Of a stretch of DNA of 64,000 nucleotides, positions 18,798-28,472 are shown piece after piece. Position numbers and translations under genes: made by a program. Below the pieces are notes generated by a model. The model did not search any database and was not told the DNA's origin. It was given only the letters and a program-made list of their open reading frames with translations. Source of the DNA: Escherichia coli (lineage in GTDB: Bacteria; Pseudomonadota; Gammaproteobacteria; Enterobacterales; Enterobacteriaceae); NCBI RefSeq assembly GCF_030013595.1, contig NZ_CP122768.1. The stretch is one strand, 5' to 3'. Position 1 is the first letter of the stretch. Each line of letters starts with the position of its first letter.

Positions 18798-19424
18798 ATG
18801 GCAAGTCAAAGTGTGCTGCCTCCGAACGCAATAACTCCCGAGAGGGCGCTTGAGGTTGTTTTATCTCACGTCGGCGATCTGCCTGGCGATATTCGAATTA
18901 TTAAAAATCCCGATTTGTGCCCTGCAAATCTGTTGCCGTGGCTGGCGTGGGAGTACGCGGTCACCTACTGGAACCCCGACTGGAGTGAGCAGCAAAAACG
19001 CGAAATTATTAAGGCCGCAGCCTGGCAAAATAAATATCGCGGCACGCGTGGTGCCGTCGAACGAGCATTATTAACGGTGGGATTTGAGAGCAAAATGAGA
19101 GAGTGGTTTGAAGCCACGCCCAGGGACGACCCGTATACATTCGCAATTAAAATATATCTGCTAAAAAGTATAGGGTTAGATTTAGAACTATTGAATACCT
19201 TTATTGCACAAATATTTGATGCAAAAAATTGCCGTTCCTTATTAAAAGAAATAAATTTTGAAACGGGTGTCGATGGTGAGTTTTTTATAGCTGGTGCACC
19301 TTACGCGAAAATAGGCGTAAATATTCCAGCAGACGGCGACGGCGGTGTAAAAATTAACGGCGGGCTATATATATCAGGCTCACCAATTGTTAGTTTAAAT
19401 GTGGAGATAGGGCCAAATGGCTGA
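18798..19424 (+). CDS. Tail protein (P2 gpI-like)
   Basis: LLPWLAWE motif matches P2 I. Confidence 0.7.
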   Translation: MASQSVLPPNAITPERALEVVLSHVGDLPGDIRIIKNPDLCPANLLPWLAWEYAVTYWNPDWSEQQKREIIKAAAWQNKYRGTRGAVERALLTVGFESKMREWFEATPRDDPYTFAIKIYLLKSIGLDLELLNTFIAQIFDAKNCRSLLKEINFETGVDGEFFIAGAPYAKIGVNIPADGDGGVKINGGLYISGSPIVSLNVEIGPNG

Positions 19425-20595
19425 AAATAAAATTTACGCAGTACTGACAGACCGGGGGGCACAACTTGAGGCCGCGGCATTAGCATCAGGTGTGCCGGTA
19501 GTACTGAATAAATTCGTTATTGGTGACGCGAACGGAAACGACGACGTAACACCGGACCCGTCACGAACAGTATTAATTCACGAAACGTATCGCGGAGATA
19601 TTAAATCGTCAGAAAATAGCGGCAATCAGGTTATTTTTACACTGTACGTACCACCGGAAACCGGCGGTTATACTATTCGAGAGGTTGGAATATTAACAGA
19701 TAAAGGCGAGCTGTACTCTGTAGCACGCTCGCCGGATATTTTAAAACCCACGGACAGCAACGGCGCGCTGATTTCAATCACATATAAATACACTCTCGCG
19801 GTGTCCAGCGCGTCTACTGTTAACGTTGTCATTGATAACAGTAGTGGAATGAGCCAAGCAGATGCAGATAAGCGTTATTTGCAGATAAGCAAAAATTTAT
19901 CTGAAATTAAAGATAAGGGCGCGGCGGCGCAACAAGCTGGGCGAGAAAATCTCGGCGTTAACTTAAATAACTATTATAAAAAAGAAGAGATAGATAATAA
20001 ATTTTCAGAAGTGGATAATGAGTTAAATAATATAAACCCAGTCATGACGGTTAACCATTTACAGCCTGATTCTGACGGCAATGTTAATGTGGATTCGGGA
20101 TACGCAAAACTGGGCGGCGACGGGGCATTTAATTTAGTTGCTCTGTTTCCGCAGCAATCTGAACCTGACGCGACAAATAAAACCATGCCTGGTTACCGGC
20201 TTTCTTCTGTGATATTTAAAGCGAATCCCAGCCTTGAAATTTTGGCTCATGGATATTTATTTGGATTGTGGGAATTAATTGCCATTCCGTTAGTGACAGT
20301 ATCTAGCGGATACGAACTGAATGGCGGTGTTTCTGGTGCTGTAATGGCTCGGCGAATTCCTGTTGGCAATATAAACAAATTCAGCAATATAAAAAAACCT
20401 CATTATCCTCAGGGCCGTGGCGTGGTGGGAACGTATGAAACTGCCTACATAAACATTGAATGCGATATTGAGGGAGTTGGAACCGGACTAATATTCACGA
20501 CAAATAATAATGATGTTGAGGAATACGGTCGTCAATTATATCAAAACGCAATAAACGGTATGTACGGCACAGTAACAAACGGTTATCAAAGTTGA
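19417..20595 (+). CDS. Tail fibre protein (P2 gpH-like N-terminus; divergent AT-rich C-terminal region)
   Basis: N-terminal collar/fibre domain similarity to P2 H (LIHE..., PPE.GG, RE.GL); C-terminal half has distinct composition. Confidence 0.6.
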   Translation: MAENKIYAVLTDRGAQLEAAALASGVPVVLNKFVIGDANGNDDVTPDPSRTVLIHETYRGDIKSSENSGNQVIFTLYVPPETGGYTIREVGILTDKGELYSVARSPDILKPTDSNGALISITYKYTLAVSSASTVNVVIDNSSGMSQADADKRYLQISKNLSEIKDKGAAAQQAGRENLGVNLNNYYKKEEIDNKFSEVDNELNNINPVMTVNHLQPDSDGNVNVDSGYAKLGGDGAFNLVALFPQQSEPDATNKTMPGYRLSSVIFKANPSLEILAHGYLFGLWELIAIPLVTVSSGYELNGGVSGAVMARRIPVGNINKFSNIKKPHYPQGRGVVGTYETAYINIECDIEGVGTGLIFTTNNNDVEEYGRQLYQNAINGMYGTVTNGYQS

Positions 20596-20607
20596 TGGAG
20601 GTAATAA

Positions 20608-22107
20608 ATGAGCACTAATTTTTTGCACGGCCCCCGCACGCTCGAATACGACGACGGAACAAAAGAGATCAGCACGGTCGATATTTCCGTTATCGGTATC
20701 GTCGGCACTGCCCCGGATGCGAGCGCCCCCACATGCGCATCACTACTATGGGGATCAGAACTCGCAGATAATCTTGTTCAGTTTTCCACTGTCATGCCTG
20801 GGGCCGACGGAAACAACTGGATTGTCGAAATCGTCAATCTCGGTATTAACGGGAATGTAGCAACTCCAGGATACAGCACACTGCCCGACGGTTCGAGAAA
20901 ATTAACAATGATCACGGACGGTGCCATGACTCCGTCAAAAATGTACGATCAGAACCAGCAGTATAAAGAAGGACTCCAGATTGGAGAATATATTAACGTC
21001 ACATTCGGTGGTGATCACGCAGGAACGGGGACTGTATTCGCGCTCCCCCCAACAAATTTATCCGGTGGTAAAGACGAATCGTTCAAATATAATGTTCCGA
21101 CGTTAATTGCAGGCAGTCAAAAAAAAGCTGGATTGCTCGGTGGGTCTGGCACCCTTCCTCCCGCTGTATCTGAAATCCTAAATCAGGATGACGCTATTAT
21201 TGTTGTTGTCCGCGTTGAAGAAGACAGTGACGAAACAAAAATGAGGCAGAACGTCGTTAACGGGATTAACGCATTGTTGACGTCTGCACAAATAAATCAA
21301 GTGACTCCGAGAATTTTAATTGCTCCAGATTATAGTGCTAACGATTATATCGCTGAACAACTTGAAGTGGTGACAAATAAATTACGAGGTGTTGGGTATA
21401 TCGATTCACCGCGAGGCGCTACGCCTGCTGACGTTGTGAATCGTCGTCAGAGATATGGCGCCAGGATGGAAATTTTACGCCCTCGCGTTTATTCTACGAG
21501 TGATGTCAGTGGGTTATCTCGTCCGTATTCAGCTATCGCTGCTGGTTTGCGAGCCAGAATTGATAATGAAAAAGGATTCTGGTGGAGTAAATCGAACCAG
21601 AATATCTACGGAGTTACAGGGCTTGAACAAGTCGACGATTTTATTATTGGTGAGACAAACTGCACAGCGAACCTGTTGAACGCCAGTCAGGTCAGCACAA
21701 TTATTCGCTATGACGGGTTCCGGCACTGGGGTAACTATCTGTGTAGCCTCAGTCCCCAATGGTCCTTTGAATGCGTTCGTCGAACAGCTGACGTAATTGA
21801 GGATTCTATAGCCCGGGCAATGATGACCGATTTTATTGATCGTCCGATAGATCTGCACCTCGGAACAGACGTTGTCGAGTCGATAAACGCATATCTGCAC
21901 AAATTAGAGGAGCAGGGCGCGATTAACGGAGGGCGTGCGTGGTTAGACGGTGAGCTGAATACAAAAGAAAGTCTGGCCGCTGGTAATCTTTATATTAATG
22001 TTGATTTTGGTCCGAAATCTCCGGCACAAACAATTACGTTAATGTACCGCATTAATAATGACTATACAGTTGAAGCACTGGCCTCACTTTTTAAAGAAAC
22101 AGCCTGA
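20608..22107 (+). CDS. Contractile tail sheath protein
   Basis: Size (499 aa) and position before the tube gene in a P2/Mu-type tail cluster. Confidence 0.7.
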   Translation: MSTNFLHGPRTLEYDDGTKEISTVDISVIGIVGTAPDASAPTCASLLWGSELADNLVQFSTVMPGADGNNWIVEIVNLGINGNVATPGYSTLPDGSRKLTMITDGAMTPSKMYDQNQQYKEGLQIGEYINVTFGGDHAGTGTVFALPPTNLSGGKDESFKYNVPTLIAGSQKKAGLLGGSGTLPPAVSEILNQDDAIIVVVRVEEDSDETKMRQNVVNGINALLTSAQINQVTPRILIAPDYSANDYIAEQLEVVTNKLRGVGYIDSPRGATPADVVNRRQRYGARMEILRPRVYSTSDVSGLSRPYSAIAAGLRARIDNEKGFWWSKSNQNIYGVTGLEQVDDFIIGETNCTANLLNASQVSTIIRYDGFRHWGNYLCSLSPQWSFECVRRTADVIEDSIARAMMTDFIDRPIDLHLGTDVVESINAYLHKLEEQGAINGGRAWLDGELNTKESLAAGNLYINVDFGPKSPAQTITLMYRINNDYTVEALASLFKETA

Positions 22108-26539: not shown

Positions 26540-27487
26540 ATGGCAGTAATATCGGGTGTATACGCAAACGGGATCGGTGGGCCAGTTGTCGGCGTTCAGT
26601 TAGTATTAACAGCGCGGGTCACGAGTTCAGGCGTAGTAATGACCACCGTTGTAGAGCAAAAAACAGGCGCGGCGGGTGAGTACAAATTTGATATGAAGCC
26701 CGGCGTTTATGTCGTCACTGGTTGTGGCGCGTATCTGGGCGTGATTAATGTTAATCCGGACAGCCCAGACGGTACGCTAAACAACTATTTAACTAATTTT
26801 AGCGCAGACGAAATGACGCCGGCGGCGCTGACCGAGATCCAGGAACTGGTTAACGAGGCGAAGGCCGCGGCGGCTACTGCTCAGGATGCTGCTGCGCAGG
26901 CGATAACCGCAGTAGAAAAAATCGGCACGCCTGCGCCGTACATCCCGCCAGCGTGGGACGCCCCGGGGAGCACAATTTTTGGATATCTTTATATTGATAA
27001 AGGCACGTCATATCTACGGCCGGGGGAGATTGTTTCCGCGTCGTCAATTTACGTTGGCAACGTGACAATGATCGATAAGGGGAGCGGCCCGATGATCGGC
27101 ATGAGTCACACGCAGCAGCCCAGCGGTGGGAGTTGGCGTTTGCAAGGCAGCACAACACCAAATACAGACGCGAGTGTTAAATCAATGCGCAGCGCATTGA
27201 TTTTTCTCAGAATTGATAGCGACAGCCTGTTAACGCCCTCTCTGTTAAAAAGCGGTCGCGGCTCTGCGCGGGTGCGTAATTGCCGTTACGTAAACGCAGA
27301 GGGGACCTCGATTGATTGCGAGATTTTCACAGCAAACAGATGGATTCCGTTTACAGCGGCCGCTGATGACGTAACTGATTGGGGACGAAAAATTTTCAGC
27401 GACGCCCTAGCCGGTTTGTACGGTGTGATTGGCGTATTCGGCGCCCCCCTTTTTCCAGCTAATTGCAGTGAATCACCAGTAGTCTAG
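26540..27487 (+). CDS. Hypothetical protein (315 aa) following gpD; possible fibre-like/receptor-recognition protein or cargo
   Basis: ORF 5 nt after the gpD stop; Gly/Val-rich N-terminal segment then Ala-rich helical stretch; no confident family. Confidence 0.4.
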   Translation: MAVISGVYANGIGGPVVGVQLVLTARVTSSGVVMTTVVEQKTGAAGEYKFDMKPGVYVVTGCGAYLGVINVNPDSPDGTLNNYLTNFSADEMTPAALTEIQELVNEAKAAAATAQDAAAQAITAVEKIGTPAPYIPPAWDAPGSTIFGYLYIDKGTSYLRPGEIVSASSIYVGNVTMIDKGSGPMIGMSHTQQPSGGSWRLQGSTTPNTDASVKSMRSALIFLRIDSDSLLTPSLLKSGRGSARVRNCRYVNAEGTSIDCEIFTANRWIPFTAAADDVTDWGRKIFSDALAGLYGVIGVFGAPLFPANCSESPVV

Positions 27488-27732: not shown

Positions 27733-28152
27733 ATGGTCGTTAAAAATGCTCTTGCCTGTGGGATTATGCTTGCTCTTGTCGGTTGTGCTACAAAACCTGT
27801 CTCAAATGAACAAGCCACACCTGTTCCTGAAAAACAAATAATCAGTACCGCGTTACTCGAAAAACGAGACGGTACGGGAGAGGTGATCATCAAGCGTGAC
27901 TCGGGGTTCTTTGGAAGCGCGTGCTTTTCCCGTGTTTATGTTGATGGTAAAGAGGTGGCAGATTTAGGTACAGCTCAGAAAGTCGTTGTATACCCAACGA
28001 TTGGAGATCATGTCTTCAGCGCGTGGCCTAAAGGGGTATGTGGCGGTGGCATGAGCGAACAGGCGGGCAAGGTGACAACAGAACGTACTTTGATGTATCG
28101 CATAGGGTATGGATCAAACGGTGAATATGGCATTCACCCAACTGCGTTTTAA
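27733..28152 (+). CDS. Lipoprotein (139 aa), prophage cargo gene adjacent to the attachment site
   Basis: Signal peptide with lipobox LVGC; own upstream non-coding region (27488..27732); located between the tail genes and att. Confidence 0.55.
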   Translation: MVVKNALACGIMLALVGCATKPVSNEQATPVPEKQIISTALLEKRDGTGEVIIKRDSGFFGSACFSRVYVDGKEVADLGTAQKVVVYPTIGDHVFSAWPKGVCGGGMSEQAGKVTTERTLMYRIGYGSNGEYGIHPTAF

Positions 28153-28373
28153 TTTGTGTTGGGGTATGTGAGTTTTTCTCATACCCCTTTACCTCACTTT
28201 GCTCTTGACTGTTTGGTCACATCAAGGCGCAAAACATCACCATTTTTTGCCAAAAACCTTCAGAAGATGATGAGTAAGACGTGTCATAACTATATGATTA
28301 TTTGATATTCACACACACCATTATGTCCGGATAATTTACCATAATCATTTGAAATTATTGCACAAAACGAACA

Positions 28374-28429
28374 ATTTAAAATCCCTCGGCGTTCGCGCTG
28401 TGCGGGTTCAAGTCCCGCTCCGGGTACCA
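28374..28429 (+). tRNA. leuZ: Partial tRNA-Leu (leuZ-type, anticodon TAA), 3' 56 nt only (anticodon loop to CCA); prophage attachment-site core
   Basis: Sequence aTTTAAAATCCCTCGGCGTTCGCGCTGTGCGGGTTCAAGTCCCGCTCCGGGTACCA matches the 3' part of E. coli tRNA-Leu(UAA); the 5' half (acceptor and D arms) is replaced by phage sequence. Confidence 0.8.
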
Positions 28430-28472
28430 TGGGAAAGATAAGAATAAAATCAAAGCAATAAGCAGTGTCGTG

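Follow-up and report, generated by a model that had tools for sequence, protein, structure and literature searches.

How is the tip of a tail fibre folded when the gene for its assembly chaperone is missing from the place where it would be expected? The question is raised by a P2-like tail fibre gene at positions 19417-20595 (plus strand) of a 64,000-nucleotide stretch of the Escherichia coli genome (contig NZ_CP122768.1, assembly GCF_030013595.1), referred to here as the window. In phage P2, the assembly gene G occupies the position between the fibre and the sheath genes. In the window, the fibre stop codon (TGA, 20593-20595) is followed by the ATG of the sheath gene at 20608, across a 12-nt gap that carries the GGAGG of the sheath gene. 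Comparison with related prophages and with a large family of proteins points to an answer within the fibre itself. Its last ~70 residues are a homologue of the domain with which a class of tail fibre assembly (Tfa) chaperones begins, and which in those proteins binds the fibre. The reading favoured here, at a probability of about 0.6, is that of a three-part fibre in which a cis-acting chaperone or cap domain replaces the trans-acting Tfa.

The fibre gene and the absent chaperone gene

The fibre open reading frame (ORF) is intact, starts with ATG and encodes 392 residues. It matches phrog_5075 over its whole length (E=2.8e-165), and its place just 3′ of the gpJ and gpI baseplate genes (Baseplate_J, Tail_P2_I) and ahead of the sheath and tube genes is that of the P2 gpH type, here with a fused C-terminal module. 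Residues 4-143 (19426-19845, plus strand) form the baseplate-attachment domain PF12571 (E=1.2e-31, above the gathering score). This domain is near-identical across three sibling variants and shares 32-37% identity with the H fibres of P2-like phages. A sequence-only reading of the window had described a fibre gene with these limits, a conserved P2-like N-terminus and a sheath gene following directly without an assembly gene, and all of this holds.

Sibling prophages carry a small gene exactly between fibre and sheath, and the window has none there. Among the ORFs in all six frames of the 64 kb, none is Tfa-like: neither a Tfa C-terminal domain nor a stand-alone copy of the fused module is encoded. 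No tail fibre assembly protein appears in the annotation of a 99.9%-identical strain by the Prokaryotic Genome Annotation Pipeline (PGAP). The separate gene would be absent here because the fibre-binding domain of the chaperone sits within the fibre ORF.

Homology of the C-terminal module to Tfa proteins

The fused module spans fibre residues 318-388 (20368-20580, plus strand). BLASTP aligns residues 318-387 with the first ~65 aa of the 129-aa and 80-aa proteins encoded by the small sibling genes, at 37% identity (E=1e-13 and 2e-13), and the PHROG profiles 1141 and 1795 match the fibre, these small proteins and a second fibre of the same prophage in the same module region. The stand-alone sibling proteins are labelled "hypothetical protein" by PGAP. 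Pfam, NCBIfam and PDB sequence searches of the C-terminal half of the fibre gave nothing meaningful, no Pfam model was found for this type of N-terminal domain, and the sole match of tblastn of the distal part of the gene against 50,697 phage records was the module in the small ORF of a sibling.

A word-indexed protein search gave few relatives, whereas an exhaustive hidden Markov model (HMM) search revealed the family of the module. A profile built from five sequences (A2), run against 1.84 billion representatives with a threshold of E<=1e-3, yielded 1450 family representatives at 50% identity. Architectures were counted in the best 150 of these 1450. The module stands at the N-terminus and is followed by a C-terminal extension in 73 of them, makes up the entire protein in 41, and lies at the extreme C-terminus of a longer protein, as in the window, in 35; most of the fused proteins are at least 300 aa long (22/35) and nearly all start with Met (34/35). 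When 41 proteins of the extension type were scanned, 10 matched PF02413 (Caudo_TAP), 10 PF16778 (Phage_tail_APC) and 2 DUF4376 at E<=0.01. Individual scans of ten proteins placed four (P0011, P0017, P0025 and P0028) above the Caudo_TAP cut-off. The match covers the C-terminal half of P0011, P0025 and P0028 and nearly the whole length of P0017; the PF16778 matches of P0010, P0012 and P0029 sit under the family cut-off.

Residues 2-115 of the sibling 129-aa protein align with P0011 (E=2e-25). Because the module stands at the start of proteins that end in Caudo_TAP or Phage_tail_APC domains, and because of this alignment, homology shows the module to be the N-terminal domain of a class of predicted Tfa chaperones. 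In a further family member, P0043 (511 aa), one polypeptide runs from an Stf N-terminal domain through collagen repeats and a distal domain to the module and a complete C-terminal Caudo_TAP domain; to judge from these domains, it is a full fibre-chaperone fusion. The helical trimerising C-terminal domain (PF02413/PF16778) has no Pfam match on the fibre of the window, whose chain ends 5 residues past the module.

In an AlphaFold2 (AF2) monomer model of residues 200-392 (mean predicted local distance difference test score, pLDDT, 76; predicted template modelling score, pTM, 0.73), the module is modelled at pLDDT >90 as strands ~322-329, 344-351 and 355-363 followed by a helix at 369-379, and the domain that precedes it is beta-rich. 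Among BFVD entries, the best match of the module carries the name "Phage tail assembly chaperone protein" (E=2e-4); no fold match of the module to TfaMu was obtained.

The sequence-only reading had proposed a search for a fused chaperone domain, and one is found in the C-terminal half, as a homologue of the Tfa N-terminal domain and not of the endosialidase type. Cleaved C-terminal chaperones have precedents in fibres and spikes (PMC10579305) and the position of the module would suit an intramolecular chaperone that is released by autoproteolysis, as in endosialidase or T5 pb1. Given that the fibre shows no similarity to that family and lacks a PF13884 domain with an autocleavage serine, such release is highly improbable.

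Recurrence of the fused layout

The module is found fused to fibres well beyond the window. End-to-end alignment is possible for thirteen cassettes of this type, which share 29-45% identity with that of the window, and all stop 4-25 residues past the module. Two sibling prophages (L008 and L009) have a fused fibre followed directly by the sheath gene, and a further fused fibre belongs to a P2-like prophage (L010). In two Mu-like prophages (L011 and L012), a fused fibre is followed directly by com/mom, with no U gene and no invertible segment. In a Superficieibacter locus (L005), the fused cassette stands on an E217/Pam3-like tail. No other module-bearing ORF or Tfa C-terminal domain occurs in the examined flanks of the fused-fibre loci. 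The fused fibres thus stand where a Tfa gene would be expected and none is present, and these comparisons show the fused state to be a recurrent and conserved architecture on P2-like, Mu-like and E217/Pam3-like tails.

The gene order of the Mu-like loci can be read in detail at L011 4001-6603 (and in L012): the fibre P0018 with its fused module, com, a gene for a CHAP-domain protein, and mom, with no U/Tfa gene and no equivalent of the G segment.

The prophage of the window carries a second, short fibre-like gene after gpD (26540-27487, plus strand), which encodes 315 aa with an Stf-type N-terminus (PF08400, E=3e-22) and the module fused at residues ~238-300. The module of the first fibre aligns with residues 238-297 of the second (E=4e-8), a relation also recovered by HMM, and the distal domains of the two fibres differ. 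Since the second fibre also ends in the Tfa N-terminal module, both fibres of this prophage are of the fused, chaperone-less kind. The second gene is found in just 2 of 5426 E. coli genomes, and ~450 sibling prophages are without this ~1-kb insert.

Split and fused states also occur within one class of tips. The distal domain of the split fibre of one sibling (L004), which has a separate 80-aa gene, is homologous to that of the second, fused fibre of the window (BLASTP E=2e-5). The tip of the split fibre of the common sibling (L003) gave no significant match to the second fibre (BLASTP E=1.0), so the comparison of split with fused states uses L004 alone.

The fusion might be thought a non-functional accident, in which the fibre became joined to a remnant of tfa through a deletion during prophage decay. 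The large terminase gene of the window does contain an in-frame TAG (9035-9037), the same gene is interrupted by ISVsa5 in a near-identical strain, and the full fibre gene is present in just 3 of 5426 E. coli genomes. The fused layout, however, persists in homologues with no more than 29-45% identity, on three types of tail and in other genera; the module is conserved in them, and every one of the 13 aligned cassettes ends shortly after it. Decay is thus a very improbable source of this arrangement.

The recurrence also bears on a chaperone supplied in trans, by the Tfa of another prophage or by a host factor, which would leave the fused module irrelevant to assembly. An E. coli genome usually contains more than one tfa-bearing prophage, and the search for a Tfa gene covered 64 kb. 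Yet the fibre already has the cognate binding domain within its own chain, and no Tfa gene lies within 1.7-8 kb downstream at five independent fused-fibre loci. Tfa N-terminal domains have moreover been described as specific to their own fibre tips (PMC9608196), and supply in trans is regarded as quite improbable.

Exchange of the distal cassette

The module is part of a larger unit, a swapped host-range cassette at 19909-20605 (plus strand) delimited by blastn breakpoints against three relatives (L001, L003 and L004). Against the common sibling variant (L003/L001), homology ends at 19908 and restarts at 20606, two bases ahead of the sheath ATG; against the third variant (L004), it ends at 19995 and restarts at 20605. 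Such siblings, present in about 450 E. coli genomes, share the first ~164-193 fibre codons; past these they have a different tip and, between it and the sheath, a small gene (129 or 80 aa). L003 and phage records such as ON470596 (L001) encode a 394-aa fibre and the 129-aa ORF, and L004 encodes a 305-aa fibre and the 80-aa ORF. Siblings with the 129-aa Tfa-like gene are 90-93% identical to the window at the nucleotide level, both in the tail genes on either side and over the first 164 codons of the fibre gene. Because the breakpoints against both variants sit at these places, the exchange unit is shown to comprise the tip of the fibre together with all that lies between it and the sheath start.

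The distribution of the gene fits this picture. By megablast, the whole fibre gene is present in 3 of 5426 complete E. coli genomes, against ~449 that carry just its first ~413 nt, at 88.6% identity. The modular exchange proposed in the sequence-only reading is borne out by these counts and by the breakpoints; neither a chaperone gene elsewhere in the tail cluster nor a uniformly conserved fibre was found. The AT-rich, divergent C-terminal half on which that proposal had leaned is confirmed in part. The bias is real yet modest, with a GC content of 0.409 in 19909-20605 against 0.449 in 19417-19908, 0.465 in the sheath gene and 0.472 in the tail cluster, and among all 697-bp windows of the prophage part the cassette falls within the lowest 2.8%; alone this bias would not be convincing. 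The extent requires correction, since the divergent part starts at about codon 165 and therefore makes up ~58% of the gene, not exactly half.

The left recombination junctions fall within or just past a linker motif, ADKRYLQISKNLSEI..AQQAGRENLG (residues 149-180; 19861-19956, plus strand), that is common to all three variants. The motif also occurs in the Mu S fibre (8ju3, a weak match) and in P0002, P0015, P0018 and P0026, unrelated fibres of the module family. We infer that it serves as a recombination linker for the exchange of fibre tips. An invertible host-range segment of the Mu G or P1 C type was considered and rejected, as there are neither flanking inverted repeats nor opposite-strand alternative tips. 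In 18800-21200, just one inverted repeat was detected, 14 nt long and imperfect, and no sizeable minus-strand ORFs that could encode alternative tips were found.

Four phage records that include one of these relatives deserve comment. vB_EcoM-569R10, 705R4, 783R5 and 720R5 (L001, ON470596.1, and three similar records) are entered in GenBank as "complete genome", yet they are 20-27 kb long and, besides tail and head genes, include yecA, a gene of the host. Because of this size and the presence of yecA, they appear to be partial prophage regions and not complete phage genomes.

Within the cassette, the module is preceded by a variable, beta-rich distal domain, presumed to bind the receptor (residues ~205-317; 20029-20367, plus strand), in which the anchors GDGAF, G.W and QR.P.G recur in 13 homologues. 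The module is conserved and the distal domain varies. Across the 13 aligned cassettes, mean pairwise identity is 0.26 in the distal domain vs 0.49 in the module, and divergence from a close relative (L006) reaches 13.1% in the distal domain, against 2.6% for the module and 1.6-4.3% for the flanks. The contig of L006 is noisy, with single-base deletions scattered over all its genes, and apparent frameshifts in L006 and P0001 were judged to be sequencing noise because such deletions spread through every gene of the contig. Over 19909-20367, the pattern against L006 resembles localised diversification or nested exchange.

This contrast speaks to the possibility that the module does not aid folding and serves mainly as a permanent part of the tip, either structural or in contact with the receptor, in an adhesin-like role such as has been proposed for TfaMu or T2-type gp38. 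TfaMu stays attached to the tip of its fibre, where contact with lipopolysaccharide has been suggested (PMC9608196; PMC10579305), the module occupies the extreme distal end of the chain, and the module-only small proteins (41 of the best 150 representatives) are without a trimerising domain. Receptor recognition would be expected to bring variability, however, and this lies in the preceding domain, whereas no part of the cassette is better conserved than the module; the same module is common to fibres with two unrelated types of distal domain. A mainly structural or receptor-contacting role is therefore considered unlikely.

The variable domain contains a protospacer for the E. coli type I-E CRISPR system (20222-20253, with a canonical AAG protospacer-adjacent motif at 20219-20221; together 20219-20253, plus strand). 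A 32-nt spacer with a perfect match lies between two repeats of the queE-ygcE array at NZ_AP019675.1 958228-958260, and the 33-nt matches of 100% identity to the protospacer region in complete E. coli genomes are annotated as CRISPR. The spacer would be carried by roughly 55 complete genomes vs 3 that carry the target.

Proposed mechanism

Known Tfa proteins bind the distal fibre through a variable N-terminal domain and trimerise through a conserved helical C-terminal domain, and TfaMu is retained on the virion (PMC9608196; PMC10579305). In the three-part fibre favoured here, the conserved N-terminal domain docks the fibre on the P2-like baseplate, as homology and synteny show, and the linker motif would be the site at which tips are exchanged by recombination, as the breakpoints indicate. 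The distal cassette, acquired horizontally, combines in one reading frame a beta-rich domain that evolves fast and is presumed to bind the receptor with the ~70-residue homologue of the Tfa N-terminal domain. This fused domain may bend back to contact the distal part of the trimer to which it belongs, where it would do in cis what the Tfa N-terminal domain does in trans, nucleating or stabilising the correct folding of the tip, and it would probably remain on the tip as a cap. Because it would thus bind its own trimer as a cis chaperone or cap, the cassette could be self-sufficient. The outcome would be a single-gene, chaperone-independent host-range cassette that is mobile between unrelated tail types.

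A broader claim can be put forward tentatively, its chances falling somewhat short of even. The fibre may represent a widespread, undescribed class of self-sufficient fibres that have captured the Tfa N-terminal domain in cis as a permanent cap, with the trimerising domain, supposed to be essential, in fact dispensable, in a cassette mobile among P2-like, Mu-like and other contractile tails. Literature searches returned nothing relevant on a fusion of a fibre with a Tfa N-terminal domain, though an earlier description is still possible.

Such a class would have practical weight. Swaps that retarget the tail fibres of phages and tailocins usually must bring the cognate chaperone gene along, and with a natural cassette that has the binding domain of the chaperone inside the fibre, one gene would suffice as a specificity module. 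The coexistence of split and fused forms amounts to a natural "Rosetta stone", which suggests that this N-terminal domain contacts the distal fibre and that the conserved Tfa C-terminal domain is not always needed, a point of relevance to the mode of action of Tfa proteins. The module family has many members and no Pfam model, and recognising it would improve the annotation of both fibre and chaperone genes.

Prophage setting

The tail genes of the window follow the P2-like order V-W-J-I-fibre-sheath-tube-E-TMP-U-X-D by Pfam and profile annotation, where V, W and J are of baseplate type, E is of the chaperone type and TMP is the tape measure. Immediately upstream of the fibre lies a gpI-type baseplate or tail protein gene (18798-19424, plus strand; PF09684 Tail_P2_I, E=5e-37), the stop of which overlaps the fibre start; the sheath gene immediately 3′ occupies 20608-22107 (plus strand; PF04984, PF17482). 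A scan of 19300-20800 for promoters and terminators gave no signal above background. The head module is lambda-like, joined to the P2-like tail order, according to the annotation of a near-identical strain. The window is 99.9% identical to a prophage that adjoins yecA and tyrP in E. coli HCP5S3_I2 (L002), and a 100%-identical fibre gene in NZ_CM149870.1 is annotated as "phage tail protein" (WP_064226213.1).

The terminase lesions noted above lie in a lambda-type large terminase gene at 8087-10048. L002 has TGG in place of the in-frame TAG, and the ISVsa5 insertion in the HCP5S3_I2 gene corresponds to window positions 8721-8731. Because this packaging gene has been inactivated twice independently, the element may be defective or domesticated.

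At the prophage end, an ORF of 139 aa (27733-28152) matches the phage lipoprotein family phrog_890 (E=3e-52) and is kept in sibling prophages. In an annotated relative, it is followed by a "tRNA-OTHER" feature (~28330-28434 of the window) and then by yecA. It may be a surface-modification or exclusion gene beside the attachment site. As a candidate for a relocated chaperone, this ORF was ruled out on two counts: its match to a lipoprotein family, and its presence also in siblings that have their own Tfa-like gene.

Comparison with known systems

With P2 gpH/gpG (genes H-G, then the sheath gene FI), the window shares the order V-W-J-I-fibre-sheath-tube and a homologous PF12571 N-terminal domain. 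It differs in having no G-type gene, in the unrelated distal 58% of its fibre and in the placement of the fibre-binding domain of the chaperone within the fibre chain. Its nearest relatives, the sibling prophages, have a different fibre tip with a separate 129-aa Tfa-like gene and are without the second fibre gene.

The likeness to the Tfa proteins (lambda Tfa, Mu U/TfaMu, Pam3 gp25; PF02413, PF16778) lies in fibre residues 318-388, which are homologous to the N-terminal domain of members of this group and are predicted to bind the fibre as it does. Whereas those are separate small downstream proteins, the version of the window stands in frame within the fibre ORF and is without the helical trimerising C-terminal domain. 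Endosialidase, T5 pb1 and GA-1 gp12 (Peptidase_S74) offer a functional parallel, a chaperone acting in cis from the C-terminus of a trimeric fibre or spike, a function that is putative for the window. The module differs from these chaperones in having no sequence or fold similarity to them and no hint of a cleavage site, and its evolutionary origin is the N-terminal domain of a Tfa protein.
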